Below the pieces are notes generated by a model, which was not told the DNA's origin, made no database searches, and worked only from the letters and a program-made list of their open reading frames with translations. A stretch of 64,000 nt of DNA from an uncultured Bacteroidales bacterium (GTDB lineage: Bacteria > Bacteroidota > Bacteroidia > Bacteroidales > WCHB1-69): positions 5,142 to 69,141 of the forward strand of contig CAMORT010000004.1 of assembly GCA_946624065.1 (NCBI GenBank). The letters run 5' to 3'. The first letter of the stretch is position 1. Each line of letters opens with the position of its first letter. This document shows, one piece after another, positions 377 to 16,269 of the stretch. The position numbers and the translations under genes are program-made.

Positions 377-3300
377 ATGAAGAAAAAGTTCTTACTTGGG
401 CTGCTTTTATGCCTGTATGCGAATCTGTTTTTCGCGCAAACATCTGATTATCAATTTCATTTATCCGCAAGTGTGGTGGATGCCACCTGTCAGGGCAATG
501 GCCAGATCCATTGTTCCCTATCTTACCCTGACACTTTGGCGCTGGAACAAATCCGATACTATTACATTCCTCTGTCAGGGTTAGATTCTATTGTGGAAAC
601 CAGCATGCCAACCATAACACACCTGCGAACAGGGCACTATAAGATAAAAGTGTCCGCTCTTTGTCGCACAGGGTTGACACACGAGAATTCTTATGTCATA
701 CTCTCTGATTCCATTGAAGACATCTATGTCGGGACCAGCTACAAAATCCCATTCAGCGGCATGATCTACAACATTTATTCTTTTGCCGCGCCATACGGAA
801 TAGTGCCTTCGCTGCCGTGCGAGCCCACTGGCAAACTACAAGTGAAAATGCACGACGGAACATTCCCGTATCACTTTGTGATTATGCGCATTACACCTAC
901 CGACACCGTTTTTTACAAAGAAATCACATTTGACACCAACCAGTATAGCGGAACGGACTCATTGCGCCACGACTACAAGCATTACTACACGATCGACAGT
1001 TTGGACACAGGCCGATACAAGATCCTATGTTATGACGGATGCGGCTACTACACACCATATCTTTATGTCACTATTCCCAAAGTGCGCCACTTTAACTCCG
1101 CGGATTTGCACCTGTTGAGGAACAGTTCCGGATTTCCTGAAAGCCACAACATCATCACTTTTAAGGAACTGTCTGAAAAACAAAGTTTTGCGGGTTCAAA
1201 TGATGATTATTACCGGAATTATGAAAACGGGCACAACATCTTATATTACCGTTTCATCAACCCTTCGCTAAGCATAGAAAACGACACTACGGCGTGGCTT
1301 CCCATGCCCTTATTCGACCAGAGTGTGTTTCTTTATGACACCCTAAGCCGATTACAGGATTATGGCCAAGTTTGGGGACGAAGCATCATTCTTCAAATCC
1401 AGCCCTACTGCGGGGACACGCTTTTCTCATACACATTCAACATATATAGCCACGGAAACAATCAAATTTATATGGGGCAAGCCATCGAAAACTATGTGGA
1501 AGTGCCTTCTGTGTACACATTCTGTTGGCATCGGGACATGTCTAGCGAGTATGATGCCATCAACGAAGCGATTGCCAGCGAGCATGTTCGCAACCCATGT
1601 TACATGCCGGACACCATCAACTGTCAAAATTATTATGGCTATACCGTGGCTGATTTGGACATGCCTTACTATGTGGGCATAACATTCCACAGCTATATTA
1701 CTTTCCCATTAAAAGCAACTATCATCAATATGACGCACGACACCTTGGTCTTTTCTGGCGAGGTTCCCGGCACCGACTACTTTTGGAGTCATCGGTTTTT
1801 GGAAAACGAAGATTTTCACAACGATTCAGTGCTCCTTATCATCACCGACGCATACGACAACCCATTGATTAGCAGGGTGATGCAATACAGGAAATTCGAT
1901 GCGCATTATAGGTATGGGGGAAATATTCATTATCATAATTGGACTTCTTGGGATCAGGATTTGGATGGGGATTATTTTTGTCCTGACCAACCCCATCACC
2001 TGGGAATCTATCAAAAATACGGGCTATATTATTCCACCATCATCGATGGGGAACGGCACTATTTATATGACAGGGATACTATTTGTTTGGTAGAGAGTCC
2101 GGAGGGCAACAAATACAATCTCACAGCCACGGCGGGGCCGGGTGGCGAATGGGTGGTGAACAGGCTACGGCCTGACAATCATGCCACTTTAGAGAGGTAT
2201 CTTTTCAGAGACAAGGAAACCAACACGGGTTATCCCGGCGTTCTGTTCACTGACACAAACTTGGCTCCCGGACGCTATGTTTGGATTGTTTACAAGCCCT
2301 GTGAAACCAACGACACCATCATACAATATATCGATTATAACCTCCCTGAAATCACAGAGCAGCCGCATTACCGTTTGGACACCACCTGCACCGCGCTGAA
2401 CATCATCCCCGTGAGCGGCCAATACAGCCGGGATGGTGTGGCGTTGGAGACTTTCTTTCAAGTTTATGCGACGGACACGCTCACGCACACTGCCTCCGCC
2501 GTCCACAAAAACGGAACACTGTCCGTCGGACTTCCGGGAACCTACCGTATTGGCATGTACACCTTGCCGCAAAACAACGGAAGACTGCTCGCGCTCAACC
2601 CTTGCTTCGTTGCAGACACTGTGATCGAATGGCGAAACGAAACCATTGAATTGGAATACATTTACGGACATGTATGCAATGAGCACGACACAGAAGGGTT
2701 TGTGCGCGTGAAAGGACAAAAAGGACTAAAGCCCTACACTTACAAACTCTTCAGCGCTCCTAATGGTGGCGGCACACTTATTGCCACCAACAACGACGGG
2801 GTTTTCGACCAGGTGCCCGTGCGGTTCGGGCAAACCGTGTCCGTGGAGCTCACCGATGCCTGCAATGCGCATTTCATCACCAACCTTACCATCAGCGACA
2901 TGGATAAAATCAGAAAGTGCTGGTTGGAAAACGGAGGGAGCAGTATGGTTTTCGATGAAGGGGACACTTGCCACATGTTTGGCTTGTCGTTGGGTGGATG
3001 CAACTACTTGTGGTCGGGGCCAAACGGTTTCCAAAGTGACGAAACAAACATTCATGTTTTTGTCACTGGCCCTGAGGTTGCGGGAACCTATTGCATTGCC
3101 ATTGAAGGCGGGGGGTGTGGCATTCTGCGCGACAGTGTGCGGTTGAGGGTGTTGGAACGTCCCTGTCCGCAAGCGGTGGACTACGACGGCAATCACTACA
3201 ATGCTGTCCGGATCGATGGGTTTTGTTGGACTCAAACCAACCTGCGAAGCACACACTACAGTGACGGGCGGACGGTGGACTCTGCCTATGTGTATGAACA

Positions 3301-3748
3301 CTCGGACTTCACGCAAGAGCAAATGATCGAGACTTTCGGGATGCTGTACCGATGGGCAACGGCCGCGGATTCCGGAAACATCCACTATGCTGACGCCGCC
3401 CACCATGTGCAGGGCATTTGTCCGTCGGGATGGTACCTGCCCACCCGCAGCCAATACGAATGGTTGGCGACATGGGGTGCGGATGCCCTGCGCGCGCCCG
3501 ACTACTGGATTAACGGCGCCGGTGGCCACAACGAAACCGGATTCTCGGCTCTCCCCGCCGGCTTTTACAACGGTCTTCGCAACAGGTTTGAGAACTTGTA
3601 TGGTGAAACACGCTTCTGGTCGATTAATCCCGACGATTTCTCCGAAAATCGGACCGCCAGTACGCTGACCTTTTTCTGCCCCGTCCTGAAACCCGTGGAA
3701 AGCAACGACCTTGACGCCTATTCTGTACGCTGTATTTTGGCCGAATAA
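377..3748 (+). CDS. Large secreted protein with SprB-like Cys/aromatic repeats in the N-terminal and central parts and a C-terminal FISUMP (Fibrobacter succinogenes major paralogous, TIGR02145-like) domain
   Basis: The 1123-aa ORF has a signal peptide, MKKKFLLGLLLCLYANLFFAQ. Repeats follow the pattern C-x-G-x-G...PY-x-(F/Y), for example ATCQGNGQIHC, GTFPYHFVI and GLKPYTYKLF. The C-terminus (DYDGNHYNAVRIDGFCWTQTNL...MLYRWATAA...GICPSGWYLPTRSQYEWL...GFSALPAGFYNG...ETRFWS...AYSVRCI) matches the FISUMP consensus pattern. Confidence 0.75.
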   Translation: MKKKFLLGLLLCLYANLFFAQTSDYQFHLSASVVDATCQGNGQIHCSLSYPDTLALEQIRYYYIPLSGLDSIVETSMPTITHLRTGHYKIKVSALCRTGLTHENSYVILSDSIEDIYVGTSYKIPFSGMIYNIYSFAAPYGIVPSLPCEPTGKLQVKMHDGTFPYHFVIMRITPTDTVFYKEITFDTNQYSGTDSLRHDYKHYYTIDSLDTGRYKILCYDGCGYYTPYLYVTIPKVRHFNSADLHLLRNSSGFPESHNIITFKELSEKQSFAGSNDDYYRNYENGHNILYYRFINPSLSIENDTTAWLPMPLFDQSVFLYDTLSRLQDYGQVWGRSIILQIQPYCGDTLFSYTFNIYSHGNNQIYMGQAIENYVEVPSVYTFCWHRDMSSEYDAINEAIASEHVRNPCYMPDTINCQNYYGYTVADLDMPYYVGITFHSYITFPLKATIINMTHDTLVFSGEVPGTDYFWSHRFLENEDFHNDSVLLIITDAYDNPLISRVMQYRKFDAHYRYGGNIHYHNWTSWDQDLDGDYFCPDQPHHLGIYQKYGLYYSTIIDGERHYLYDRDTICLVESPEGNKYNLTATAGPGGEWVVNRLRPDNHATLERYLFRDKETNTGYPGVLFTDTNLAPGRYVWIVYKPCETNDTIIQYIDYNLPEITEQPHYRLDTTCTALNIIPVSGQYSRDGVALETFFQVYATDTLTHTASAVHKNGTLSVGLPGTYRIGMYTLPQNNGRLLALNPCFVADTVIEWRNETIELEYIYGHVCNEHDTEGFVRVKGQKGLKPYTYKLFSAPNGGGTLIATNNDGVFDQVPVRFGQTVSVELTDACNAHFITNLTISDMDKIRKCWLENGGSSMVFDEGDTCHMFGLSLGGCNYLWSGPNGFQSDETNIHVFVTGPEVAGTYCIAIEGGGCGILRDSVRLRVLERPCPQAVDYDGNHYNAVRIDGFCWTQTNLRSTHYSDGRTVDSAYVYEHSDFTQEQMIETFGMLYRWATAADSGNIHYADAAHHVQGICPSGWYLPTRSQYEWLATWGADALRAPDYWINGAGGHNETGFSALPAGFYNGLRNRFENLYGETRFWSINPDDFSENRTASTLTFFCPVLKPVESNDLDAYSVRCILAE

Positions 3749-4222: not shown

Positions 4223-6718
4223 TTGAAAAATAAAAAACTGTTTTTCCTGATCCTCACCTTGCTGATGACGACCTTCGCCTATGGTCAGAAGGCCGTCGTG
4301 AAAGGCGTTGTGCTGGACGAGGAGAACCAGCCTATCGAGAATGTGGTCATTCAGGTGCTGGATTATAACACACAAACCATCACCAGTGATTTCGGGCAAT
4401 TTGCCATCAATGTTCCCGAAAATGTGGAATTCCGCCTGTACTTCCAGCAAATCAGCCACCGCGACACGGTATTGCGCTTCAAACTAAAGCCAAGAGAATC
4501 CAAAAACATCACCGTGATCCTGCCCACTATCGGCAACCGGCTGGAGCAGGTGAACATTCAGAGCAATAGCGACAACGGCTATATCCGTGTAAACCCGAAA
4601 CTTTCCTTCCAGATGCCATCCCCGGGCGGCGGCATGGAGTCCATCATCAAGATGATGCCCGGCACCTCATCCGTCAACGAACTCAGTTCCCAATACAATG
4701 TGCGAGGCGGCAACTACGATGAAAACCTGGTTTTTGTAAACGACATACAAATCTATCGTCCGTTTCTTATCCGCAACGCCCAACAGGAAGGTCTGAGTTT
4801 TGTAAACACCGATTTGGCAGGCAATGTCATTTTCTCCGCCGGCGGTTTTGAAGCCAAATACGGCGACAAGATGTCTTCCGTGCTGGATGTCCAGTACAAG
4901 GAACCCACCCAATATGGCGGCTCACTGTCGGTGAGTATGCTGGGCGCCTCCGTACATGCGGAAGGGCGTGTGGACAGCTGCTTTTCGTTCCTGATCGGCT
5001 CCCGCTTCAAGTCCAACTCCTACCTGCTCCGCTCCATGCGCATGGCAGGCGACACCTCCGATTACAAACCACGCTATTTTGACACCCAAATGCTACTCAA
5101 GTGGGATATCTCCAAGAAATTCAGCATCAGTTTCTTAGGCAACATATCCCTCAACAGCTTCATTTACCAGCCCACCAACAGGGAAACCAACTTCGGTCCC
5201 ACGGATATGACCCGACAATTCAAAATCTATTTCGACGGACAGGAGGTGGACCGTTACCAGAATTACCTCGGAGGGCTTACTTTTCATTACCGCCTTAATG
5301 AGAACAACATCTTAAAACTCATTCTCTCCTCATACTACGCCAAAGAGAGTGAAACCTATGATATTCAGGGACAATACTGGTTGCATGAGGTTGAACCGGA
5401 TTTAGAGTCCAGTACTGTACATATTTTGTCAACGCTGGGTTACGGCACCAATTTGGAGCATGCGCGCAACCATATCACCTCCATTGTATCCGCCGCCGAC
5501 CTGAGAGGCGAGCACAAACTGCCCGCATACAACCTGCTGTCTTGGGGTTTTAAAGCCCAAAACGAGATCATCCATGACCAAATCAAGGAATGGACCATGA
5601 ACGACTCCTCCGGACTCACACTGCCCTTCATCTTCAACACTCCCGGCGAGCCCGTACCGCTAGACGATCCTTCCCGAATCCTCACCTTTGGCGAAAACGC
5701 GTACTTAGTTTCCGTCAACAACTTGAATACCATGCGCTTAACGGGGTTCATACAGGACCAATGGAAGATTGATGGCGACAGTTCCTCCCATTACATTCTG
5801 AACGCCGGATTGCGTTTCCACTACTGGACCTACAACAAACGGGAATTCACCGTATCCCCGAGGGTTTCTTTTGTTTACAACCCTCACTGGAAACATGACT
5901 GGATCTTTTCCATCCGCACCGGTCTTTACTATCAGCCGGCCTTTTATCGGGAAATGCGGTATGTGGATGGCACTTTGAATCCAGACATCCGGTCACAACG
6001 ATCCTTTCAAATCGTAGCCGGCGCCGAATACAATTTCAAAATGTGGCGACGGCCGTTTAAATTTACCGCAGAAGCGTATTATAAATATCTGGACCATCTC
6101 ATCTCATATTCCATTGACAATGTGCGAATTACCTACAGTGGTTACAACGATGCCGTGGGTTACGCCACCGGACTTGACTTGAAATTGAGTGGCGAGTTCA
6201 TCCGCGGTCTGGAGTCCTGGTTCGCCGTATCCATCATGGATACCAAAGAGGATATCTTGGATGATTACTACTATGACAAGGACGGTAACCGGATAGAACC
6301 CGGATATCTTCCCCGCCCCACCGACCAACGCATGGCATTCAACCTATTCTTCCAAGACCATATTCCCGGATTCCCGCAATTCCGGGTGCATCTCAACTTT
6401 GTCTTTGCCAGCGGACTTCCGGTAGGTCCCGTAAACGCCCCCGCATATCAACGGGTTCGTGACCCCAAATGGTATCGCCGCGTGGACTTGGGATTCTCGT
6501 TCATGTTCCTTGAGCAAAGCCGCGACCGCATGCGCAACAAGTCCAAATTCATCCGCAGCATCAAAAACGCGGGTATCTATATTGAGGTGTTCAATTTGCT
6601 TGGCACCAAAAATGTGGCATCATACTCTTGGATATCCGATATTTACAACAACTCATACGCCGTTCCGAACTTCCTGACCGGAAGGATGATCAATGTGAAG
6701 TTTGCCGTGGAGTTTTAG
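4223..6718 (+). CDS. TonB-dependent receptor-like outer membrane protein with an N-terminal carboxypeptidase-regulatory-like domain
   Basis: The 831-aa ORF has a TTG start and a signal peptide. KAVVKGVVLDEENQPIENVVIQVLD is CarboxypepD_reg-like. The plug-like segment is NVRGGNYDENLVFVNDIQIYRP. A long beta-barrel-like C-terminal region ends in an aromatic residue (...KFAVEF). Confidence 0.8.
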   Translation: MKNKKLFFLILTLLMTTFAYGQKAVVKGVVLDEENQPIENVVIQVLDYNTQTITSDFGQFAINVPENVEFRLYFQQISHRDTVLRFKLKPRESKNITVILPTIGNRLEQVNIQSNSDNGYIRVNPKLSFQMPSPGGGMESIIKMMPGTSSVNELSSQYNVRGGNYDENLVFVNDIQIYRPFLIRNAQQEGLSFVNTDLAGNVIFSAGGFEAKYGDKMSSVLDVQYKEPTQYGGSLSVSMLGASVHAEGRVDSCFSFLIGSRFKSNSYLLRSMRMAGDTSDYKPRYFDTQMLLKWDISKKFSISFLGNISLNSFIYQPTNRETNFGPTDMTRQFKIYFDGQEVDRYQNYLGGLTFHYRLNENNILKLILSSYYAKESETYDIQGQYWLHEVEPDLESSTVHILSTLGYGTNLEHARNHITSIVSAADLRGEHKLPAYNLLSWGFKAQNEIIHDQIKEWTMNDSSGLTLPFIFNTPGEPVPLDDPSRILTFGENAYLVSVNNLNTMRLTGFIQDQWKIDGDSSSHYILNAGLRFHYWTYNKREFTVSPRVSFVYNPHWKHDWIFSIRTGLYYQPAFYREMRYVDGTLNPDIRSQRSFQIVAGAEYNFKMWRRPFKFTAEAYYKYLDHLISYSIDNVRITYSGYNDAVGYATGLDLKLSGEFIRGLESWFAVSIMDTKEDILDDYYYDKDGNRIEPGYLPRPTDQRMAFNLFFQDHIPGFPQFRVHLNFVFASGLPVGPVNAPAYQRVRDPKWYRRVDLGFSFMFLEQSRDRMRNKSKFIRSIKNAGIYIEVFNLLGTKNVASYSWISDIYNNSYAVPNFLTGRMINVKFAVEF

Positions 6719-6740
6719 TTCCTCACCTTTCTTTTTTTAG

Positions 6741-6748
6741 TATCTTTG
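6741..6748 (+). promoter_or_regulatory. Candidate -7 box (TATCTTTG) driving the cobalamin riboswitch transcript
   Basis: The TAnnTTTG motif lies about 20 nt upstream of the first conserved riboswitch nucleotides. Confidence 0.5.
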
Positions 6749-6764
6749 CCCCGTTTTTGGCGAA

Positions 6765-6912
6765 GCGGTCATTTTTTTGCCGTTTCAGGGAAACAGGTGC
6801 GAATCCTGTACAGTACCCGCTGCTGTAAGTTTCATCCGTTTCCGGCACAAAAAAGTCACTGCCGCAAGGTGGGAAGGCGTGTCGGGAGAAACAAGTCAGA
6901 ATACCGGCCTAA
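6765..6912 (+). promoter_or_regulatory. Cobalamin (B12) riboswitch
   Basis: The conserved core is readable on the + strand: CAGGGAAACAGGTGCGAATCCTGTACAGTACCCGCTGCTGTAAG ... AGTCACTGCCGCAAGGTGGGAAGGCG ... and a B12-box-like AGTCAGAATACCGGCC at 6894-6909. It lies in the 5' leader of the 6990 gene. Confidence 0.85.
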
Positions 6913-6989
6913 AACATGTTGTTAACCGCTTCGGGAGATAAGCGACATGCTGCCCGAGCACCATTATTAACCCATTAAATGCCGAGGTA

Positions 6990-8060
6990 ATGCATTTCAA
7001 ACAACCCTTTTTCCACGGAATCATTTTGTTTATGTTCGCCGTATTTTGCGGTGCCAGCTGCCAGCCCCCCACTCCACCCCCAACCCCTCCCGTTGACACT
7101 CAAGCAAGCGGCATCTACATTCTCAACGAAGGTCTTTTCCAACACAACAACAGCACCATATCATTTTACAACTTCGACACGGGCGATTTTCGCGCAGACT
7201 TGTTTCTTGAGATAAACCAGCGTGGCCTTGGCGACACAGGAAATGACCTTAAACGATATGGCAACAAACTCTACTGTGTGGTCAACAACTCCCATCGGGT
7301 GGAAGTAATGGATTTCGCCACAGCAAAATCCATCAAAGCCATCAGTCTTCCCGGGAAAAGCCCTCGTCATATCACCTTCCACCAAAACAAAGCGTATGTC
7401 TCCTGCTTTGACGGCGATGTGGTGCGTATTGACACAGCCACCTTGGAAGTGGAGCAATCCGTACACTCAGGCAACAACCCCGAAGGTCTCTGCGTATGCA
7501 ACGGCAAACTCTATGTGGCCAATTCCGGCGGACTGAACAATCCGGATTATGACAAGACCGTGTCCGTATTTGATGTCAACACTTTGACTCTGCTGAAGAC
7601 CATCGAGGTCGGGATCAACCCGTACATGGTGGCCGCCAGCGACAACGGACAATATGTGTATGTGTGCACGCGCGGCGATTACATTGACCAGTGCGGCACG
7701 CTCTCCCGCATTGATGCCCATACCGACCAAGTTAGCCAGACATGGCAAAACATCCAAAACTTCTGTTTAGACGGGAACAAAGCATATGTGTATGAGGTGG
7801 ACTACAATGCCGCTTCCAACCCTGTCAAAGTGCTCGACCTTACCAATCCGGATATGGAGCCAACCCTTTTCATTACCGATGGCACCAATTTGCAAATGCC
7901 CTACGGCATCACCGTAAACCCATTGAATGGGGATGTCTATATTACGGATGCTCACAATTTTACAGTCACGGGAGATGTATTCTGTTTCGACAAAAACGGC
8001 AAAAAGAAATTCTCTTTCTCTGCGGGATTGAACCCGAGTGCCATTGTGTTTAAGCAATAG
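6990..8060 (+). CDS. Surface lipoprotein with YncE/YVTN-type beta-propeller repeats, under B12 riboswitch control; a candidate corrinoid-uptake accessory protein
   Basis: The 356-aa ORF has a lipoprotein signal, ...FAVFCGASC, followed by a Pro-rich linker, QPPTPPPTPP. Blade motifs repeat (NKLYCVVNNSHRVEV, NKAYVSCFDGDVVRI, GKLYVANSGG, QYVYVCTRGD, GDVYITDAHN). It is immediately downstream of the riboswitch. Confidence 0.75.
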   Translation: MHFKQPFFHGIILFMFAVFCGASCQPPTPPPTPPVDTQASGIYILNEGLFQHNNSTISFYNFDTGDFRADLFLEINQRGLGDTGNDLKRYGNKLYCVVNNSHRVEVMDFATAKSIKAISLPGKSPRHITFHQNKAYVSCFDGDVVRIDTATLEVEQSVHSGNNPEGLCVCNGKLYVANSGGLNNPDYDKTVSVFDVNTLTLLKTIEVGINPYMVAASDNGQYVYVCTRGDYIDQCGTLSRIDAHTDQVSQTWQNIQNFCLDGNKAYVYEVDYNAASNPVKVLDLTNPDMEPTLFITDGTNLQMPYGITVNPLNGDVYITDAHNFTVTGDVFCFDKNGKKKFSFSAGLNPSAIVFKQ

Positions 8061-8240
8061 GATGTATCGACAAACAGCGAGAACATCATCAATCTCGTTC
8101 TGGTTATACGGAGTGTTGAACACCACCGTAAACCTGCCATGAGCGAGCTCTAGCGCAAGCCATAAAATATCTTCTCTGTTTTTGTTTACATATAGTGTCA
8201 ATTTCGCGCCGCCAAATGCCATTTTCAGGCGGTTTTTTGC

Positions 8241-8248
8241 TATTTTTG
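8241..8248 (+). promoter_or_regulatory. Candidate -7 box (TATTTTTG) for the helicase-nuclease operon
   Basis: The TAnnTTTG motif is 86 nt upstream of the ATG at 8334 and abuts the perfect hairpin at 8248-8278. Confidence 0.4.
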
Positions 8249-8278
8249 CAGAACCACAAAAAATAATTGTGGTTCTGC
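8248..8278 (+). repeat. Perfect 11-bp inverted repeat (hairpin or operator) in the leader of the helicase-nuclease operon
   Basis: GCAGAACCACA (8248-8258) pairs with TGTGGTTCTGC (8268-8278) across a 9-nt A/T loop. The repeat is flanked by the direct repeat TGCTATTTTT at 8238-8247 and 8276-8285. Confidence 0.7.
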
Positions 8279-8333
8279 TATTTTTATAATGAATTATCGC
8301 CATATGACAAAAAGGAGGTTGTTCTAATATTTT

Positions 8334-11300
8334 ATGAAAGATATTTTGCGTAATTTTCTTGAGAAAAACAAACAAGATTCTGGTTTAATGTTGTTACCGT
8401 TAACAACTGGGTCAGGGAAAACTCATCATGTTCTTGAATATATTGCTGATTTACTTACGCGAAACAGAGAACAAAAGGTGTTCTTTATAACAACGCAAAA
8501 GAAGAATCTCCCTGTCGAAAAACTACGCAGCTTATACAAGGGTAGTGATTTTGATGAAAGGGTTTTGCGAATCCAGTCAGTAATGGATTGTGTAAAAGAA
8601 AACTTGACTGATGAATTGGTTAAAGAAATTAAAGACAAACACCCAATTCTTGCAAGTTCCCCGAAATTCAGAATGTTAGTTGCTGTTCGCAGAGAAATAC
8701 TTCGTATTGGCGATGAAAACATAGAAACGGGACGGGTGGCAGAACGTGATTTTCGTGATGAGCTGTTAAGTTTTCTAAAAAAGGACTGTAAAAAAGAAGA
8801 TCTTCTAAATAAAATAAAAACAGACATGTCATGGCGATGGGTCGGTAAATTATATCCAATGGTTTACACAGCGGAACGACAAGTTTATTTTATGAGTATG
8901 GACAAATTTATGCTCCCGTATAACACTCTTGTTGATCCGATAGAGAAACTTGTTGATAGTAAGTGGTTCCATGGCGCGTATGTCTTTATTGATGAATTTG
9001 ATGCAACAAAAGGAACCGTTCTCAATAGAATTATTGATGACAAATACAATAAAATCAATCTAATAGCATTGGCAAAAAAAATCACACAAGGTTTAAACTA
9101 TACCGATTTCCCAGCTATTTATACAGATACCGAGAAAATAATTAAAAATAACTTAACTAATTTCAATCAATTAAGCAAGGATTATTGTTTTAAATACGCA
9201 TTCAAAACATCAGATGAGATTAAATCAACAGATAGTTTTTTGTTTCACGATAACGGATATTGGGGACAAACCACAGAGAAGAGCTTAATAGTGAGAACCG
9301 ACACCCAGCGAAAACAGAACATTATTAATTATAAATCTGGAGATAACGACAATAAAACATATACGCTATATGAGCTTTTGTCTAAAATACAGAGCAAACT
9401 AACGTATTTTCAGAATGGCGTTTCATATATCGCCAAAGACTACACCAACAAAAAAGATGTAAATCTTAAAACTGCGGTTGATTCTTTTTTAAACTTATTT
9501 CTTGATAATCCTTTTAGCGATTACATTTCCGCACAGGTGATGTCGATTTTACGGGCAGAGAATGATAAGAAAAGCGATATATCTATAATGGACAAATTTG
9601 ATACATCATTCTATAAAAAAGGGTTTCGCTATACCAGATTGGAGAATGATGACTTTAGTAATGCGGAACAATCAGAGGTGACTTTATACTCCTATAATGA
9701 TACGCCTGAATCTGTAATGGAGAAAATGGCTAAAGTCGCAAAGATTGTGGGAATTTCGGCGACGGCTACACTTAAAACCGTATTAGGGAACTACGATATT
9801 GATTATTTGCGACGTAAGTTGCTTGACAAATACTATGTCTTGAGAGAAGATGAACAAAAACACTTGAAAAATTTCCTCAATGAATCAAAGAAGAATTATC
9901 ACAAAACTAATATCAATGTTGAATTTACTGATATTTCAGAAAAAGAATATACCGATGAAGTATGGTTGAACATTGTTTCGGAAACAGATGCACAAGAAAT
10001 AACAGAAGCATTAAATAATAGTTATGGCACTAACAATTATATAAAATTCAGATTTTATAAAATATCGTGGGCATTCAAACAATTCTATTCGCACGATGAT
10101 ATTAAATCATTCTTGTGCTTTATGAATTTGCACCCAAAAAAAGGGAATGATTTGGGTTGTGAGATGTTGTCTTTTATTTTTGATAAAATAACAGGGGAAA
10201 ATGGTGGAGCAAAAAATTTGATAGAATATTTAAACAACGAAGGAGAAGGTTATGATAGTAATTTGAATCGAGTAAGAGATCGTTTAAGCAAAGGAGATAG
10301 ATTGTTTGTAATATCTGTTTACAAAACTCTTGGTACTGGCCAAAACCCACAATACAAAATTCCAAATGGCATCGAAGTAGTAAAAATCAACGACAAATAT
10401 GATAAAGACGAAAAGGATTTTGACGCAATCTATTTGGACAAACCTACTCATATAATCAGCAATTTATATGATACTTCACAACTAAAATGGGATGAGAATG
10501 ATTTCTTAAAGTTTGTTTTTGAGATGGAGTATTTGTGTCAAAACGGAGATATAAGCGTGTCACAAAAAAGAGAACTGATAAATGCTGGTTCTAGAAAGTT
10601 GTGTGGTATACCTTGCAAAAGAAAAAGAGATATAGACGTTGAACGTATGCAGCCATACAAAGGCTTAGCGACACAGGTGATAAATCAAGGTTGCGGGCGT
10701 ATTTGTCGTACTAACAAGAAGAACAAGAACATATACATTTTTGCAGATAGAGATATTTCAAGTGTAATTGACCCTTCGGCAAGAACGGCAATCCCATTGA
10801 GCCCTGAATTTGAAAAATTGCTCGACGAGTTAGAAAAGATTGGTATTCAAGAATCTGCACCAACATTATATGAGGAAAAGGCTAAAAAAATTGCAACAGA
10901 TACATCCCGAACTATTGGCAGTTATTTATCCTGGGAAGATAGGTGGACAGCTAACAAAATAGATGAGTGGAAGCAAATGCGGTCGTACGCATTATTATTC
11001 CCTACTCCCAACGAACAAGAGTTCAAAACTTTTCCACTTTGTGATATGTATGTTGAATTGCCGGAAAAACAGTCGGCATATTGGTATGACCAATCGGAAG
11101 ATTATGGGAAATTTGACGCAATCAGTTTTACGAAGAAATTATCTCAGGAAGTATCCGAAGAAGATTGCCAGTTGAAAACATTGATGAAAATTCCAGGCAT
11201 AAAAGAATTATTTGAAAGGAAAGGCTATAATACATTCTGGACCCCTACCAAATATATGATGTCACCTTCTTTGTATAGTCGAATATATAAGGGCGCATTG

Positions 11301-11681
11301 GGCGAGGTTGTTGGGAAACAAATATTTAAAGACACAATAGATGTTGAGCTGGAAGACATAGAAGATAGTTCTGTTTATGAATTCTTAGATTACAAGGTGC
11401 CGGGTAAACCTATATATGTGGATTTCAAGTTGTGGAAAGAATTTGATTTGGGTAAGGATAAATCTGATAAACAACGTTCGGAGATTTTCGCTAAAGCGAA
11501 AAAATGTAAAGCCAAAAAAGTTTTCATTGTCAATATTTGCTCAACAACCGAACGCTCATGTAAACCACCAATTGAAGAAGAAGGCTGCACTTTATTCGAA
11601 ATACCACAATTATACTATGAGAATGGAGACCAAGTTAAACTCTCTATTAGTTCAATAGAAACAATATCCAAACACTTATGA
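8334..11681 (+). CDS. SF2 (DExD/H-type) helicase fused to a C-terminal PD-(D/E)xK-like nuclease motif; the large subunit of a candidate two-gene defence system (DdmD-like architecture)
   Basis: The ORF is 1115 aa. Motif I is LPLTTGSGKTH (aa 21-31, nt 8394-8426). Motif II is VFIDEFD (aa 217-223, nt 8982-9002). Motif III is GISATAT (nt 9750-9770). Motif VI is QGCGRICR (aa 785-792, nt 10686-10709). The C-terminal EFLD(1019)YKVPGKPIYVD(1030)FK(1032) fits D...(D/E)xK. The region is AT-rich. The stop overlaps the next ATG. Confidence 0.8.
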   Translation: MKDILRNFLEKNKQDSGLMLLPLTTGSGKTHHVLEYIADLLTRNREQKVFFITTQKKNLPVEKLRSLYKGSDFDERVLRIQSVMDCVKENLTDELVKEIKDKHPILASSPKFRMLVAVRREILRIGDENIETGRVAERDFRDELLSFLKKDCKKEDLLNKIKTDMSWRWVGKLYPMVYTAERQVYFMSMDKFMLPYNTLVDPIEKLVDSKWFHGAYVFIDEFDATKGTVLNRIIDDKYNKINLIALAKKITQGLNYTDFPAIYTDTEKIIKNNLTNFNQLSKDYCFKYAFKTSDEIKSTDSFLFHDNGYWGQTTEKSLIVRTDTQRKQNIINYKSGDNDNKTYTLYELLSKIQSKLTYFQNGVSYIAKDYTNKKDVNLKTAVDSFLNLFLDNPFSDYISAQVMSILRAENDKKSDISIMDKFDTSFYKKGFRYTRLENDDFSNAEQSEVTLYSYNDTPESVMEKMAKVAKIVGISATATLKTVLGNYDIDYLRRKLLDKYYVLREDEQKHLKNFLNESKKNYHKTNINVEFTDISEKEYTDEVWLNIVSETDAQEITEALNNSYGTNNYIKFRFYKISWAFKQFYSHDDIKSFLCFMNLHPKKGNDLGCEMLSFIFDKITGENGGAKNLIEYLNNEGEGYDSNLNRVRDRLSKGDRLFVISVYKTLGTGQNPQYKIPNGIEVVKINDKYDKDEKDFDAIYLDKPTHIISNLYDTSQLKWDENDFLKFVFEMEYLCQNGDISVSQKRELINAGSRKLCGIPCKRKRDIDVERMQPYKGLATQVINQGCGRICRTNKKNKNIYIFADRDISSVIDPSARTAIPLSPEFEKLLDELEKIGIQESAPTLYEEKAKKIATDTSRTIGSYLSWEDRWTANKIDEWKQMRSYALLFPTPNEQEFKTFPLCDMYVELPEKQSAYWYDQSEDYGKFDAISFTKKLSQEVSEEDCQLKTLMKIPGIKELFERKGYNTFWTPTKYMMSPSLYSRIYKGALGEVVGKQIFKDTIDVELEDIEDSSVYEFLDYKVPGKPIYVDFKLWKEFDLGKDKSDKQRSEIFAKAKKCKAKKVFIVNICSTTERSCKPPIEEEGCTLFEIPQLYYENGDQVKLSISSIETISKHL

Positions 11682-13495
11682 AAATAAATACCAATCGAAT
11701 TGTTTATGAATTGGATGCCATACAAATGGCATCGTTATATGATGTTTATTCGTTGAAAACGACAAATGATCGATTCCATTCAGGAGCGAAGTTGATTGAC
11801 GAATTATCTGATAATAAACGCATTATATCAGTGGTGTTTGTTTCAAGAAAAGAATATTTGATAATGCTGAAGAAAGGCATAGAAAGCAGGTTTGATTTGC
11901 TTGATAACATTCGCAAACAGAAAGACGGCGACAAGATTACATTAACTGATTATTTGTCTGGAAAAACCAATGATTATTACTTGCTTCAACTTCTTTTGAA
12001 TGCCCTCGGTACGCGCCAAACAAAGTTTGAATCGTACAATAATGTTACTGGGCATTTGTATTGCTTCAGTCCCAATTGGATAAAAAGGTTTCATTCTGAA
12101 ATCATCAGTATTCCCACTATGGACATCCGTTTGACATCGGGCATTTTGACTTGGAATATCTGCACATTCAACTCGCTGAAATACAAGAATGTGATGGATT
12201 TTGGGAAACGGAACATTTCGGAGTTTCCGCAATACACAATCTCTGCCAATTATACATTGCGCCGAAAATTAAAAGATGATGGTAAAACGGATGCCTATAT
12301 TCAACGAAGGATTTTCGACGAGAAAACAAGCAAAACATTTCTCGATATTTCTGATGAGAAAGCATTTGATGAAAGCAAGATGGGAATCATTACAAAAGTG
12401 GTTTCACAGTTCAACGAGAAATACAAAGGGCTGGCAAATTTGAATTTTGAGCAACAGGAATCGGCGTCAACTATTGAGTATTCAAGCAACCGGGAAAAAA
12501 GACTATTGAACGAACGACTTACAAGGATGCTATCAAAACAAAAGGTCATTCTAGTCGATCTAATAGGAGATGAGAAATCGGCAATCCAATGCGAAAAAAT
12601 AGTTTCTGTTTTCAAATCATACTTTGGAATATCGGTAAAACAAGCCAAAAGACTGTCGAAAGATGCATATAATTTAAGATTGATACACAAGGACTCATAT
12701 TATGGTGATAATTTTGCAGATCCACATGACGAAACTAACCTATCGAAATATACTGTTCAACACATAACAACAGAGAATTTCAATGATAAAGGATCAGATG
12801 TTTATCTTCGGGCTATCGCATTCAATGTCGTAGAAGAATTAATCATTAAAGATGATTTAAGGAATGGAGCTATCTCAATTGTTAATTGGTCTGAATACAA
12901 ATTCAAAGACAATTTGATTTTTGGCCTTGAACACGATATTCCATCTAAAACCGGTGGAACAATCAGTCAATTCTTTTTTATGGCCATAAAACCTGATGGA
13001 CGGTTTGAGATACGACAACTGGAGAACGATTTGTTCTCCTCTGATGAATACCATAAATATTTAAAAATCTTTACTTCTTGCGAGGAAGAGACAGTAAAAG
13101 GCATCGTTAAATGTGGCGAGAACATTAATGTTATCCATGAGACAGGATTACATACGGTTCCAAATATTTTTGGATTGAAAGATGAGTTGGCAAAGGGTAA
13201 TAACAAACTCAAAAATAAAGAAGCTCGAGATAATTATTTGTCTGCATTACTTGATGTGAAAACATTTGAAAAGGATAAGGAGTTGTATTATTATGTGGGA
13301 GAAATGGGAGTCGGCATAAATAGCACATTATCAGGTGTACCTATCCGTAGAATAGAAAAATTTGAGGATTCTTCTTTATTCTTCGACAAACTTTTACCAC
13401 TTATGGGAGTGACATTTGTCCGCAACGGACAGTTGACGGTTGTACCATTTCCGTTTAAGTATTTGAGAGAATACATAACGACTATGAAACCCTAA
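11678..13495 (+). CDS. 605-aa partner protein, translationally coupled to the helicase-nuclease; the C-terminal half shows a degenerate MID/PIWI-like (Argonaute-like, DdmE-like) motif pattern
   Basis: An ATGA start/stop overlap lies at 11678-11681. A Rossmann-like segment reads KVILVDLIGDEKS...FKSYFGISVKQ. PIWI-like landmarks are LIFGLEHD (nt 12923-12937; canonical GxDV), NVIHETG (nt 13130-13147; canonical RDG) and VVPFPFKYLREY (nt 13439-13474; canonical PxPxxYA-D/H). The assignment is by eye only. Confidence 0.55.
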   Translation: MKINTNRIVYELDAIQMASLYDVYSLKTTNDRFHSGAKLIDELSDNKRIISVVFVSRKEYLIMLKKGIESRFDLLDNIRKQKDGDKITLTDYLSGKTNDYYLLQLLLNALGTRQTKFESYNNVTGHLYCFSPNWIKRFHSEIISIPTMDIRLTSGILTWNICTFNSLKYKNVMDFGKRNISEFPQYTISANYTLRRKLKDDGKTDAYIQRRIFDEKTSKTFLDISDEKAFDESKMGIITKVVSQFNEKYKGLANLNFEQQESASTIEYSSNREKRLLNERLTRMLSKQKVILVDLIGDEKSAIQCEKIVSVFKSYFGISVKQAKRLSKDAYNLRLIHKDSYYGDNFADPHDETNLSKYTVQHITTENFNDKGSDVYLRAIAFNVVEELIIKDDLRNGAISIVNWSEYKFKDNLIFGLEHDIPSKTGGTISQFFFMAIKPDGRFEIRQLENDLFSSDEYHKYLKIFTSCEEETVKGIVKCGENINVIHETGLHTVPNIFGLKDELAKGNNKLKNKEARDNYLSALLDVKTFEKDKELYYYVGEMGVGINSTLSGVPIRRIEKFEDSSLFFDKLLPLMGVTFVRNGQLTVVPFPFKYLREYITTMKP

Positions 13496-13590
13496 AATCC
13501 ATGCTGACACAAAAACACGGTTAACCAAAGGTTCGTCCGCCGGCAGGAACGATCTGTAAACACTTGCCCGATTTAGTCTCCGAGCTGAAG

Positions 13591-13860
13591 CTACTCTGCC
13601 AATTTAATAAGCGGTTCGCCCAAAGCAGTGGAAATCTCGGATAATGTTCTAAATGTGAAGTTAGGAAGGCCTGTGATCCAACGAGAGACCACCGCTTCGT
13701 TTTTTCCCAACTTTTTCGCCAAGTCACGCTGCGTCATGTTCTTTTCATTAAGAATCTTGTCAATGCGTGCAATGATACCTGCAGACATCTGCACCTCCGA
13801 CATGATTTCCGGCGAAACTTGCTCTACTCTGGATTTGAACCATTCTTGCTTGTCGTTCAT
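13591..13860 (-). CDS. XRE-family helix-turn-helix transcriptional regulator
   Basis: The 89-aa ORF contains KNMTQRDLAKKLGKNEAVVSRWITGLPNFTFRTLSEISTALG, a classic HTH_3/Cro-C1 pattern. It is convergent with the 605-aa gene. Confidence 0.85.
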   Translation of the reverse strand: MNDKQEWFKSRVEQVSPEIMSEVQMSAGIIARIDKILNEKNMTQRDLAKKLGKNEAVVSRWITGLPNFTFRTLSEISTALGEPLIKLAE

Positions 13861-14063
13861 ATTTCAAAAATAATGTTGTCTGTACCAACAAGTTCTTTTT
13901 CGTTAACGCTGATATAGCCCTTTTCAATGTTTTCCTTCAAAATTCTCTCAAACCTTTGCAAATCTAACACATAACCATACAGTTTCGGATCTTCCTGATA
14001 ACTCTTAGTGCTTTTTACTCCTCCATTCCCTAGAATAACGATTTGCTCGAAGTTCTTTGTGAT
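13857..14063 (-). pseudogene. Decayed small ORF upstream of the XRE gene and overlapping it; possibly a toxin-like remnant
   Basis: A 68-codon open frame (ITKNFEQIVILGNGGVKSTKSYQEDPKLYGYVLDLQRFERILKENIEKGYISVNEKELVGTDNIIFEI) has no start codon. Its TGA overlaps the XRE ATG (ATATGA). The only nearby ATG (14095, MKKMTLDKISESQRTSSKSLF*) is in a different frame, consistent with a frameshift. Confidence 0.3.
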
Positions 14064-14101
14064 TCAGAAATTTTGTCCAATGTCATCTTCTTCATACGCT
14101 G

Positions 14102-14109
14102 CAAAAATA
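14102..14109 (-). promoter_or_regulatory. Candidate -7 box (TATTTTTG on the minus strand) for the decayed ORF and XRE transcript
   Basis: The plus-strand sequence is CAAAAATA, whose reverse complement is TATTTTTG. It lies just upstream of the ATG at 14095. Confidence 0.35.
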
Positions 14110-14439
14110 TTAAAATAATTGATATATATGTCAAGTTTGTTTATTTTTTTCTTATCTGCGCAGACATGCCTCACTAACCTCTCACACAGACAATCTGCTC
14201 GGGGTTAATGAAATGGTGCGCTTTCAGCACGCACTTCGCTCTCTTTTTGTCATGGTCTGTTTCTACTTTGCAATATTACAACACAAAAAACTCATTATCA
14301 AGTATTTTGCAAAATTTCATATCAGAGTGGTTTTCAAATAAATATATAATAAAAATTTACAATTAATTATACAAATTGTTAATTTTCAATGTGTGTATTC
14401 GGAATAATCAAAAGAAATGTTGCCTTCAACTAAAATCAC

Positions 14440-14447
14440 TATCTTTG
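14440..14447 (+). promoter_or_regulatory. Candidate -7 box (TATCTTTG) for uvrC
   Basis: The TAnnTTTG motif lies 32 nt upstream of the uvrC ATG. Confidence 0.45.
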
Positions 14448-14478
14448 CCCACAATTTCTCATCATCTCATCCGCCCAC

Positions 14479-16269
14479 ATGAAAGAGGTACGCGAAAATC
14501 TGAAACTCATACTCAAAACCCTGCCTGAAAAGCCGGGCGTATATCGCTTTTTGGACGACAAAGGCACCATCATATATGTTGGCAAGGCCAAGCGTTTGAA
14601 ACGGCGCGTATCCTCCTATTTCAACAAAGAGCATGATTCCGCCAAAGTCCGTATGCTCGTCACCAAAATCCGCGACATACAAACCACTGTGGTGGACACC
14701 GAATGGGAAGCGTTGCTGCTGGAGAACAGCATGATCAAGCAGTTCAAACCACATTACAACATCATGCTGAAAGACGACAAATCGTATCCTTGGATAGCCG
14801 TCACCAAAGAGGAGTTTCCCCGGATTTTCCCCACCCGGCGTCCCGAACCCGACAAGATGCAACTATTCGGCCCCTATTCGTCTGTAAAACAGATGAATGT
14901 GCTGCTGGACACCATCAACGAGATGTTCCCTCTGCGCAAATGCAAACGGTTGGTGAAAAACGACCGGCCCTGCATGCAGTATCAGGTGCACAACTGTTCG
15001 GCACCCTGCTGTGGATACATCACGGCCGAGCAATACCAGGCCAACATCCAAAAAAGCGTGGATATCATCAAGGGCAACCGGAAGGAAGTCATCAGCCGCT
15101 TGAAAGAGGAAATGATGAAATGTGCGGAGAACTGGGAGTTTGAAGAAGCGGGCAGAATCAAACAGCAAATCGAAATTCTGGAGAATTTTGTGGTGAAATC
15201 GGTGGTGGTCAGTCCGCAACTTACCAATCTGGATGTATTCGGAATGGAAGAGGACGACGACTGTGGTTACATCAGCTTCTTGCGCATTGTGGACGGTTCC
15301 ATCGTGCAAGCGCACACGCTGGAAATCAACAACAAGATGGATCGCAGTCGCGAGGACCTGCTTTGGGCAGGATTGCTGGAGATGGAGATGCGGTTGGGCG
15401 AGTTGTTCCCCAACATTCTGCTTCCCCTCATGCCGACCATTGAGACGGAGAAATGGACATTCCAGGTTCCCCAGCGGGGCGAGAAGCGCAAACTGGTGGA
15501 ATTGGCGGAGCGCAACGCCCATTTCTACATGCTGGAGAAGAAGAAACGGCAAGACTTGGTCGATCCTGAGCGCCGGAGCCAGCGCGTGCTCATGGCCCTG
15601 CAGCAAGCCCTCGGCATGAAAACACTACCCCGCCGTATCGAGTGCTTCGACAACTCCAACACCCAAGGCGAAGACCCTGTTGCCGCCATGAGCTGCTTTA
15701 TTGACGGCAAACCCGCCAAAAGCGAATATCGCCACTTCAATATCAAAACCGTGGTCGGTGCCGACGATTTCGCCTCCATGGAAGAGGTGATTTACCGCCG
15801 CTATCATCGCCTGCTGGAAGAGAACAAGCCCTTGCCCGACCTTGTGGTCATTGACGGCGGGAAAGGCCAACTGAACGCCGCCTGGAAATCCATACAAGCG
15901 CTGAACATTGAAGACCGGCTGATGATGGTGGGCATTGCCAAACGGTTGGAAGACATTTACAAAGTGGGCGATGAATACCCCATCTATATCGACAAAAAAT
16001 CAGAAGCACAGAAACTGCTTCAGCATGTGCGCGACGAAGTGCACCGCTTTGGCATCACGCATCACCGCAAACGCCGCTCCAAGACCAGCATAGCTTCCGC
16101 CTTGGACAAAGCGCCCGGCATAGGACCCGTGCTCAAACAACGGCTGCTGAGCAAATTCAAGAGCGTGAGCCGCATCAAAACCGCTACTATGGCAGAACTG
16201 GCAGAAGTGTTAGGTCCCAAGAAAGCCGAAACCCTTTTGGCATATTTTCACACGCTTAACGACAAATAA
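14479..16269 (+). CDS. uvrC: Excinuclease ABC subunit C
   Basis: The ORF is 596 aa. The GIY-YIG N-terminus reads PGVYRFLDDKGTIIYVGKAKRLKRRVSSYF. The C-terminal (HhH)2 region reads LDKAPGIGPVLKQRLLSKFKSVSRIKTATMAELAEV. Confidence 0.95.
   Translation: MKEVRENLKLILKTLPEKPGVYRFLDDKGTIIYVGKAKRLKRRVSSYFNKEHDSAKVRMLVTKIRDIQTTVVDTEWEALLLENSMIKQFKPHYNIMLKDDKSYPWIAVTKEEFPRIFPTRRPEPDKMQLFGPYSSVKQMNVLLDTINEMFPLRKCKRLVKNDRPCMQYQVHNCSAPCCGYITAEQYQANIQKSVDIIKGNRKEVISRLKEEMMKCAENWEFEEAGRIKQQIEILENFVVKSVVVSPQLTNLDVFGMEEDDDCGYISFLRIVDGSIVQAHTLEINNKMDRSREDLLWAGLLEMEMRLGELFPNILLPLMPTIETEKWTFQVPQRGEKRKLVELAERNAHFYMLEKKKRQDLVDPERRSQRVLMALQQALGMKTLPRRIECFDNSNTQGEDPVAAMSCFIDGKPAKSEYRHFNIKTVVGADDFASMEEVIYRRYHRLLEENKPLPDLVVIDGGKGQLNAAWKSIQALNIEDRLMMVGIAKRLEDIYKVGDEYPIYIDKKSEAQKLLQHVRDEVHRFGITHHRKRRSKTSIASALDKAPGIGPVLKQRLLSKFKSVSRIKTATMAELAEVLGPKKAETLLAYFHTLNDK

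Follow-up and report, generated by a model that had tools for sequence, protein, structure and literature searches.

A Probable DdmDE-Type Defense Cassette with a Compact DdmE in a Bacteroidales Chromosome

The window examined here is a stretch of 64,000 nucleotides from an uncultured Bacteroidales bacterium (NCBI GenBank assembly GCA_946624065.1, contig CAMORT010000004.1, positions 5,142 to 69,141 of the forward strand). At positions 8334 to 13495 it carries two overlapping genes, ddmD and ddmE, which very probably form a functional two-gene defense cassette of the DdmDE type, acquired horizontally by the chromosome of a Paludibacteraceae-like member of the Bacteroidales. This reading draws on the homology and fold of both proteins, the conservation of their catalytic and ligand-binding residues, the strict pairing of the two genes, purifying selection, and the horizontal mobility of the pair. 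DdmDE has been structurally characterized since 2024, and to our knowledge no other system has an Argonaute that passes DNA on to a processive helicase-nuclease. The window pair is best placed with the known DdmDE systems, functionally as well as evolutionarily, while it lacks one feature that is held to be defining, namely the insertion domain (INS, also termed DID) of DdmE.

Two characterized systems serve as references. The DdmDE of Lactobacillus casei (Lc; PDB 9IX4, 9IW3, 9IXM) is the nearest solved relative of both window proteins and has the same gene order (Huang et al., 2024). The DdmDE of Vibrio cholerae (Vc), located on VPI-2 (PDB 9EZX/9EZY, 8U0U, 8U3K, 9BF1 and others), is the founding member and is more distant than that of L. 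casei. It differs from the window system in its hosts (Vibrio, as opposed to the anaerobic Bacteroidota here), as well as in having an upstream HTH-WYL regulator, for which there is no counterpart at the window locus.

The Helicase-Nuclease and Its Argonaute Partner

The first open reading frame (ORF1, ddmD; 8334 to 11681) encodes 1115 amino acids and the second (ORF2, ddmE; 11678 to 13495) encodes 605; these and all features within them lie on the plus strand. According to the ORF list, the stop codon of ddmD and the start codon of ddmE overlap in an ATGA at 11678 to 11681, which suggests translational coupling. An earlier sequence-only reading of this DNA had described the two ORFs and their overlap with exactly these coordinates and lengths. 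It had also proposed either a distant DdmDE-like system or an unclassified system associated with a prokaryotic Argonaute (pAgo), and it is the former option that proved correct, as both DdmD and DdmE were identified by profile and by fold.

By profile, fold, and residues, ORF1 is a superfamily 2 (SF2) helicase of the DinG/XPD-like type fused to a C-terminal PD-(D/E)xK nuclease. It matches the PADLOC DdmD model PDLC04130 (1.8e-45, 153 bits), albeit over aa 453–1074 only, and a single-sequence phmmer search of the PDB reached Lc DdmD at 2.7e-46 and Vc DdmD at about 4e-42. A family profile built from 24 DdmD sequences aligned end to end with Lc DdmD (9ix4, 7.6e-124), matched Vc DdmD at 1.9e-97, and found nothing in the PDB beyond DdmD chains at better than 1e-3. 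The AlphaFold2 (AF2) model of ORF1 (pLDDT 84.1, pTM 0.80) agrees with these searches. In Foldseek, its best 21 matches are all DdmD chains (E-values 5.9e-56 to 5.7e-21), of which the 20 full-length chains have TM-scores of 0.67–0.73, and these are followed by DinG/XPD helicases at approximately 1e-10. Alignment to Lc DdmD gives the shared layout of HD1 (approximately aa 1–85, 180–238, and 455–514), Insertion (86–179), Arch (239–454), HD2 (515–835), and nuclease (836–1115), although the window protein is about 20% identical to Lc DdmD and 77 aa shorter. Judged from these comparisons, the homology of ORF1 to DdmD extends from end to end, and homology to Vc DdmD likewise spans the whole protein.

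The catalytic motifs are found where they would be expected. Helicase motif I (Walker A, TTGSGKT, aa 24–30; 8403 to 8423) places Lys29 at the position of Vc Lys55 and Lc Lys33. Motif II (DEFD, aa 220–223; 8991 to 9002) lies within VFIDEFD, which begins at aa 217, and motif VI (QGCGRICR, aa 785–792; 10686 to 10709) supplies the arginine fingers Arg789 and Arg792. An SAT motif is present at aa 475 and GALGE at aa 987. The nuclease core, Glu991 ... Asp1019-x10-Asp1030-Phe-Lys1032 (11304 to 11429), aligns as VDFK against LDSK, so that Lys1032 corresponds to Vc Lys1102. Across 62 independent pairs, Lys29, Asp220, Glu221, Ser475, Thr477, Gln785, Arg789, Arg792, Glu991, Asp1019, Asp1030, and Lys1032 are invariant (Lys29 is a lysine in 61 of the 62, with the remaining sequence gapped at this column). 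In V. cholerae DdmD, K55A abolishes activity and K1102A is nuclease-dead, and both alanine mutants lose plasmid elimination. The sequence-only reading had listed the TTGSGKT, VFIDEFD, SAT, QGCGRICR, and D-x10-D-x-K motifs, all of which were recovered at the residues it gave, and its choice of Lys29, Asp220/Glu221, and Asp1030/Lys1032 as mutational targets is borne out by their invariance and by the alignment of Lys1032 with Vc Lys1102.

Two other assignments of ORF1 were considered and rejected. As the Res subunit of a restriction-modification system it reaches only 22.3 bits against PF04851 (cutoff 22.5), over aa 3–56 alone, and the island that carries the pair contains no methyltransferase ORF; the classified restriction-modification system that the earlier reading had entertained as a competing outcome was thus not found. 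As a Cas3 or CasDinG protein it matches Cas3 in the P-loop only (9e-4 and 3e-3), and no CRISPR array is present within positions 1–30000 of the window.

ORF2 is a 605-aa protein whose predicted Argonaute fold is nearest to DdmE, an assignment supported by family profile, AF2 fold, and domain mapping. A single-sequence search reaches only the C-terminal 33 residues of Lc DdmE (4.5e-7). A family profile of 16 sequences, on the other hand, matches Lc DdmE (9iw3) at 5.9e-38 over residues 5–519 and 635–704, and Vc DdmE at 1.5e-14 over the MID domain and C-terminus. The AF2 model (pLDDT 76.9, pTM 0.74) finds Lc DdmE at 1.1e-30 (TMq 0.68) and Vc DdmE at 1.0e-26 in Foldseek, followed by human AGO2, MILI, PiwiA, and Aquifex Ago. 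Structure prediction and Foldseek, which the earlier reading had called for, therefore lead from ORF1 to DdmD and from ORF2 to DdmE and then to the AGO/PIWI proteins, and the absence of a MID/PIWI-like fold, which would have spoken against its proposal, was not observed. Domains mapped from Lc DdmE follow the shared order of N (aa 1–97), L1 (98–166), a short PAZ-like domain (167–210), L2 (211–270), MID (271–403), and an inactive PIWI (404–495 and 526–605). The Lc DdmE sequence used here was reconstructed from HMMER output and lacks residues 520–634, and its numbering reproduces Arg331, Tyr339, Asn355, and Lys395.

A predicted site for the 5′ end of the guide is formed in the MID pocket by His350, Gln361, Asn367, Glu387, and Lys391 (12725 to 12850), as aligned to the Vc and Lc proteins. 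His350 corresponds to Tyr363 of Vc DdmE and Tyr339 of Lc DdmE, Gln361 to Vc Gln376, Asn367 to Lc Asn355, Glu387 to Vc Glu401, and Lys391 to Vc Lys405 and Lc Lys395. At the C-terminus, Lys594 and Glu598 correspond to Vc Lys674 and Glu678. In V. cholerae DdmE, the equivalent residues hold the 5′ nucleotide of the guide and its phosphate/Mg2+, the latter by way of contacts between Lys674 and Glu678 and the Mg2+ by which the 5′-phosphate is held, and their alanine mutants abolish plasmid elimination. The resulting pattern, (H/Y)-Q-E-K-K-E, is maintained in 61 pairs, with both His and Tyr occurring at position 350 within the clade. Other Lc residues are replaced in the window protein: Arg331 is Ser340, and the L1/PAZ contact residues Asn112, Glu118, and Lys181 are not conserved.

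The C-terminal motif PFPFKYLRE (aa 590–598; 13445 to 13471) is a hallmark of the family, in that Pro590 to Leu596 and Glu598 are invariant, although Arg597 is not. The sequence-only reading had taken this motif together with LIFGLEHD (aa 413) and NVIHETG (aa 484) as landmarks of a PIWI fold. All three are present and the latter two lie on predicted β-strands in the PIWI part of the model, but their acidic residues are not conserved and they are not diagnostic; position 418, for instance, is E, C, K, S, A, R, T, V, or Q in relatives. Since Asp526 and Glu598 are the only invariant acidic residues within aa 404–605 and Glu418 is variable, ORF2 has no DEDX tetrad as judged by conservation rather than by residue-level structural superposition, and in this it resembles the Lc and Vc proteins. 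The earlier suggestion of a catalytically dead pAgo-like partner thus held.

Other systems also place a dead Argonaute beside an effector gene as a guide-dependent sensor, namely the long-B pAgo-nuclease systems and SPARTA/SPARDA. Their effectors are TIR, SIR2, DREN, or HNH proteins, in contrast to the processive helicase-nuclease of the window. The fold similarity of ORF2 to SPARTA/SPARDA chains is insignificant (E = 0.078), and its partner is DdmD rather than an APAZ-effector protein. Because N and PAZ-like regions are present, ORF2 is not a short pAgo. A functional analogy may be drawn to type I CRISPR Cascade-Cas3 and type IV CasDinG, as was done by Huang et al., in which a guide-bearing sensor opens a loop and recruits a helicase(-nuclease). 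The DdmD helicase core resembles both CasDinG and DinG. In the window system, however, the guide would be held by an Argonaute in place of Cascade, and there is no CRISPR array.

The Insertion-Domain Remnant, the Compact Clade, and Its Spread

In L. casei DdmE, a 107-aa insertion domain (residues 510–616) within PIWI docks DdmD. The corresponding INS of V. cholerae DdmE consists of four helices that dock the HD2 domain of DdmD, and it was described as conserved in "long-C" pAgos (Loeff et al.). At this site the window DdmE, which is 110 aa shorter than Lc DdmE, has a 30-aa, two-helix remnant in place of the approximately 100-aa INS (aa 496–525, NIFGLKDELAKGNNKLKNKEARDNYLSALL; 13163 to 13252), and the essential four-helix domain of Vc DdmE is absent. 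Pro509 of Lc DdmE aligns to Pro495 of the window protein and the next aligned block starts from around Asp526/Leu536, which leaves 30 residues between Pro495 and Asp526 as compared to about 116 in Lc DdmE; in the profile, positions 499–529 face Lc residues 519–635. The AF2 model places helices at 497–505 and 514–520 (pLDDT 73–91). The earlier reading had recognized both components of the DdmDE architecture, but it overlooked this missing domain.

The remnant is fixed in length and is conserved on par with the rest of DdmE, with Leu504, Gly507, Lys/Arg512, and Arg517 each reaching at least 85%. Among full-length representatives the length of the segment is bimodal, at 20–45 aa (n = 98) or 80–119 aa (n = 31). 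In the set of loci, the segment is short in 49 of 61 relatives as well as in the window DdmE, and long in 12. A neighbor-joining tree, midpoint-rooted and without support values, separates the short and long forms into two clean clades of 47 and 12 (identical sequences merged). Among 62 aligned DdmD proteins, no indel that might compensate for the missing INS was correlated with the INS class. Lc DdmE is only 22–25% identical to any member of the set, and the window clade is accordingly distinct from both characterized systems. On these sequence comparisons, the compact DdmE proteins form a clade of their own, with members in Bacteroidota, Clostridia, Fibrobacterota, and Treponema. The list of the top 150 homologs and the pattern-based genome scan are both biased towards the clade of the query, and for this reason they do not establish how abundant compact forms are relative to INS-bearing ones. 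A search of the literature found no report of DdmDE in Bacteroidota or of an INS-less DdmE, the supplementary phylogenies of Jaskolska 2022 and Bravo 2024 lying outside the comparison, and within the searchable literature so delimited the host phyla are new to DdmDE.

Homologs of DdmE and DdmD number in the hundreds and are syntenic in about 78 loci, and a scan of species-representative genomes found relatives in 231, mostly rumen or gut metagenome-assembled genomes (MAGs). Hosts include Paludibacteraceae and other Bacteroidales, Flavobacteriales, Saprospiraceae, many Clostridia, Streptococcus, Carnobacterium, Enterococcus, Paenibacillus, Fibrobacterota, Treponema, and Fusobacteria. The closest relatives are from Paludibacteraceae and Bacteroidia MAGs, which is consistent with the Bacteroidota host that had been named from the sequence. 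In all loci with upstream DNA, a DdmD homolog is located directly 5′ of ddmE on the same strand, with one possible exception (locus L060, in which DdmE is truncated), and the two genes overlap or abut in the order ddmD then ddmE. No third gene is conserved, as any given neighbor recurs in at most 5 of the 61 loci. Comparison to three relatives gave ratios of nonsynonymous to synonymous substitutions (dN/dS) of 0.11 for ddmD and 0.08 for ddmE, within an overall range of 0.08–0.12, so that by sequence both genes are under purifying selection.

The pair also appears to have moved. G+C content is 0.32–0.37 over positions 8000–14000, and a low-GC island of about 6.4 kb (8070 to 14440, boundaries approximate; 0.32–0.39) stands out from flanks of about 0.49. 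Besides ddmD and ddmE, the island contains a convergent helix-turn-helix (HTH) gene and some 600 bp of non-coding, AT-rich sequence. At the nucleotide level, the four closest relatives are homologous to the window (73–82% identity) over 8334–13476 only, i.e., over the two coding sequences; the flanks of these relatives are unrelated to those of the window, and the cassette is missing from the same site in relatives. What moves is thus a cassette of the two genes alone. The GC contrast and the unrelated flanks uphold the earlier proposal of a horizontally acquired low-GC island. An identical locus with the same flanks occurs in an NCBI MAG, GCA_002392325.1.

In four Clostridia loci (L004–L007, at about 6000–16100), a compact pair lies between a gene for TnpV and genes for a NikA-like protein, a relaxase, and a large serine recombinase. 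The pair appears to be cargo of a small mobilizable element, which would put an anti-plasmid system aboard a mobile element. In the assembly collection, 224 index blocks list the DdmE of this Clostridia element (P0103). Two divergent compact pairs occur in a single MAG in three cases (L008 with L044, L050 with L054, and L033 with L042). The first case is found in Paludibacteraceae RUI231 (contig JAILLP010000036.1), where the two DdmE proteins are 82% and 35% identical to that of the window and their genes are approximately 90 kb apart. Such genomes hint at co-existing, orthogonal D–E pairing. Plasmid-borne relatives of DdmE in PLSDB are limited to two, NZ_CP117770.1 (Nostoc) and NZ_CP072985.1 (Lactobacillus intestinalis), which are distant (about 27% identity), are encoded by megaplasmids of roughly 300 kb, and bear the annotation "hypothetical protein". 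No DdmE relative was present in the phage collection.

Proposed Mechanism and Competing Explanations

By analogy with the two solved homologous systems, from which the type of guide, the class of target, the activation of DdmD by a dimer-to-monomer transition, and its recruitment are borrowed, the following sequence of events may be proposed. The slicing-dead DdmE would load short single-stranded DNA (ssDNA) guides, with the guide 5′ end held by His350, Gln361, Glu387, and Lys391 of MID plus the C-terminal Lys594 and Glu598. Guided DdmE would then base-pair with complementary plasmid or other mobile DNA without cutting it, a bubble would open, and the displaced strand would be passed to DdmD. 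DdmD would translocate 5′ to 3′ at the expense of ATP (Lys29, Asp220/Glu221, Arg789/Arg792), while its PD-(D/E)xK nuclease (Glu991, Asp1019, Asp1030, Lys1032) would nick or degrade the DNA, leading to elimination of the invader. Because the INS/DID that docks HD2 of DdmD is reduced to a 30-aa hairpin, recruitment cannot exactly copy that of Vibrio or Lactobacillus. The likeliest route is docking of DdmD through the PAZ-like/L1 surface plus the mini-hairpin. More generally, it is proposed tentatively, as a possibility with somewhat more against it than for it, that INS-less DdmE constitutes a distinct class of DdmDE that licenses DdmD by an interface other than INS–HD2, probably the PAZ-like/L1 surface together with the basic/acidic 30-aa hairpin. 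Among the anaerobic Bacteroidota, Clostridia, Fibrobacterota, and spirochetes of gut and rumen, DdmDE may occur mostly in this compact form.

Several points weigh against reading the pair as a functional DdmDE cassette. Deletion of INS/DID in V. cholerae abolishes anti-plasmid activity, and a review of September 2026 locates the handover at the INS domain, which the window DdmE is missing; one borrowed step of the mechanism is therefore unsupported. Identity of the window DdmE to the solved proteins is low, at 21.6% to Lc DdmE over aligned columns and 14–17% in structural alignment. The tyrosine that contacts the guide is a histidine, so that the guide chemistry (5′-P or 5′-OH) is uncertain. 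The compact clade is known here from sequence and predicted structure alone. Finally, profile scans of the kind that had been recommended for both proteins matched ORF1 to DdmD but left ORF2 without a hit at E ≤ 1 in Pfam, PADLOC, or NCBIfam. Since such single-sequence library scans gave nothing, the DdmE identity emerged only from the family profile and structure prediction. Nine relatives, including long-INS forms, likewise have no DdmE match in PADLOC, though the presence of a DdmE model in that release is unconfirmed.

The main rival to docking is a looser coupling, in which compact DdmE does no more than open a D-loop or ssDNA bubble with its guide, onto which unbound DdmD, activated by ssDNA of sufficient length, loads itself; together with the alternative of an unrelated docking interface, this is a less likely account, though a serious one. 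The reduction of INS/DID to 30 aa is what would be expected of it, as is the lack of a DdmD indel that tracks the INS class and of a conserved third gene, and both Lc and Vc DdmD have been published to be activated in vitro by ssDNA length alone. On the other hand, a remnant that is fixed in length and conserved at Leu504, Gly507, Lys/Arg512, and Arg517 suggests that a contact function was kept, and strict pairing with an ATGA overlap fits a physical complex. Also in favor of this rival, Lc DdmD touches L1/PAZ as well in the L. casei complex, so that further surfaces exist. It is unlikely that the main role of the cassette is phage restriction or abortive infection and not plasmid clearance. 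Many pAgo systems do act against phages, rumen and gut hosts are rich in them, and the adjoining HTH protein resembles a component of a PADLOC candidate system; yet the characterized homologs act on plasmids, with V. cholerae DdmDE primarily targeting small ones, and the effector is a processive helicase-nuclease, with no toxic domain (TIR, SIR2, or membrane) present.

Two further explanations would deny a defense function altogether. That the pair is a housekeeping DNA-repair helicase-nuclease of the DinG or AddAB type with an accessory protein is very improbable. Its helicase core does have a DinG/XPD-like fold and the cassette adjoins uvrC, but fold matches to DinG/XPD are 45 orders of magnitude weaker than those to DdmD, the partner is an Argonaute, and the genes form a low-GC insertion that is missing from the same site in relatives, patchy across phyla, and in some copies located on a mobilizable element. 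Even less credible is a decaying, non-functional DdmDE relic, an idea that might be prompted by the length of DdmE (605 aa compared to 677–715 in characterized proteins) and by broken frames beside the HTH gene in the same island. Both ORFs are intact, their catalytic residues are all invariant, dN/dS is about 0.1, an identical locus exists in an independent MAG, and the short DdmE proteins make up a large, coherent clade in which the segment is fixed at 30 aa. The clade structure, residue invariance, and dN/dS effectively refute this explanation.

If the pair is a working DdmDE system, its compact form raises a question about the handover. Every mechanistic model puts that step at INS/DID, and here a large clade under purifying selection has a 30-aa remnant instead. 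Either DdmE can do without INS/DID where other surfaces make up for its loss, or there is a second way of docking. Compact DdmDE also widens the range of the system, reported in Vibrionaceae and Lactobacillaceae in the L. casei paper, to dominant anaerobes of the gut and rumen, where it could shape the traffic of plasmids and integrative and conjugative elements, including resistance genes, and could hinder the genetic manipulation of Bacteroidales and Clostridia. As its DdmE half is unmatched in the three hidden Markov model libraries tried and public names, where given, read "hypothetical protein", censuses of defense systems that rely on models of this kind would probably arrive at too low a number for it. 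At 1115 and 605 aa, the window pair is the smallest DdmDE among those compared here, which may be of practical interest for engineering.

The Island and Its Neighbors

The island is flanked by a DUF5074 β-propeller gene on one side and uvrC on the other. On its plus strand, 55 nt 5′ of the ddmD ATG, pattern scanning and folding identified a terminator-like hairpin (8248 to 8278) with a perfect 12-bp stem, a 7-nt loop, and a T-rich tail. Its predicted stability is −24.4 kcal/mol (z = −4.6), which none of 200 shuffled sequences equaled. The hairpin probably terminates a riboswitch-controlled transcript from upstream and would thereby insulate ddmDE. An AGGAGG at 8313–8318 lies 15 nt 5′ of the ddmD ATG, which exceeds the classical Shine-Dalgarno spacing and is unusual for Bacteroidota. 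A scan for σ70 promoters was uninformative in this AT-rich DNA (34 sites as compared to 25.8 expected).

Convergent with ddmE, and within the island, is a gene for an 89-aa XRE-type HTH protein (13591 to 13860, minus strand; Pfam HTH_3 4e-11, PADLOC PDC-M64C 1.3e-21). PDC-M64C is a component of a PADLOC candidate system. The gene was not found at the ddmDE loci of relatives, and because its adjacency to ddmDE is not conserved elsewhere it is not counted among the core components; it may act as a local regulator. Directly upstream of it on the minus strand, at 13857–14140, are broken frames that include a 37-aa ORF overlapping the HTH start. Their appearance suggests a degraded toxin or partner gene, but Pfam gave no support for this, and the toxin reading was not adopted. 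Searches for direct or inverted repeats bounding the island returned only chance-level matches and no integrase was found, nor is there a tRNA next to the island, the sole tRNA of the window being located at 52.3 kb. With regard to a DdmABC partner, the window has no other large unexplained low-GC cassette, which is the sole basis for this statement, as no search was aimed at DdmABC.

Upstream of the island, a full-length cobalamin riboswitch (RF00174, 83.3 bits) is located at 6741–6926 on the plus strand, between an ORF resembling TonB-dependent receptors (4223–6718) and the DUF5074 β-propeller ORF (6990–8060). This arrangement suggests a locus for B12 scavenging, with the β-propeller gene and not the receptor under the control of the riboswitch. 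Further upstream, an ORF of 1123 aa (377–3748, plus strand) ends in a Fibrobacter succinogenes major domain (PF09603, 2.6e-18), which typically occurs in surface proteins of rumen and gut Bacteroidota and Fibrobacter, in agreement with a rumen or gut host. A giant ORF of 3738 aa occupies 30710–41926 on the minus strand.

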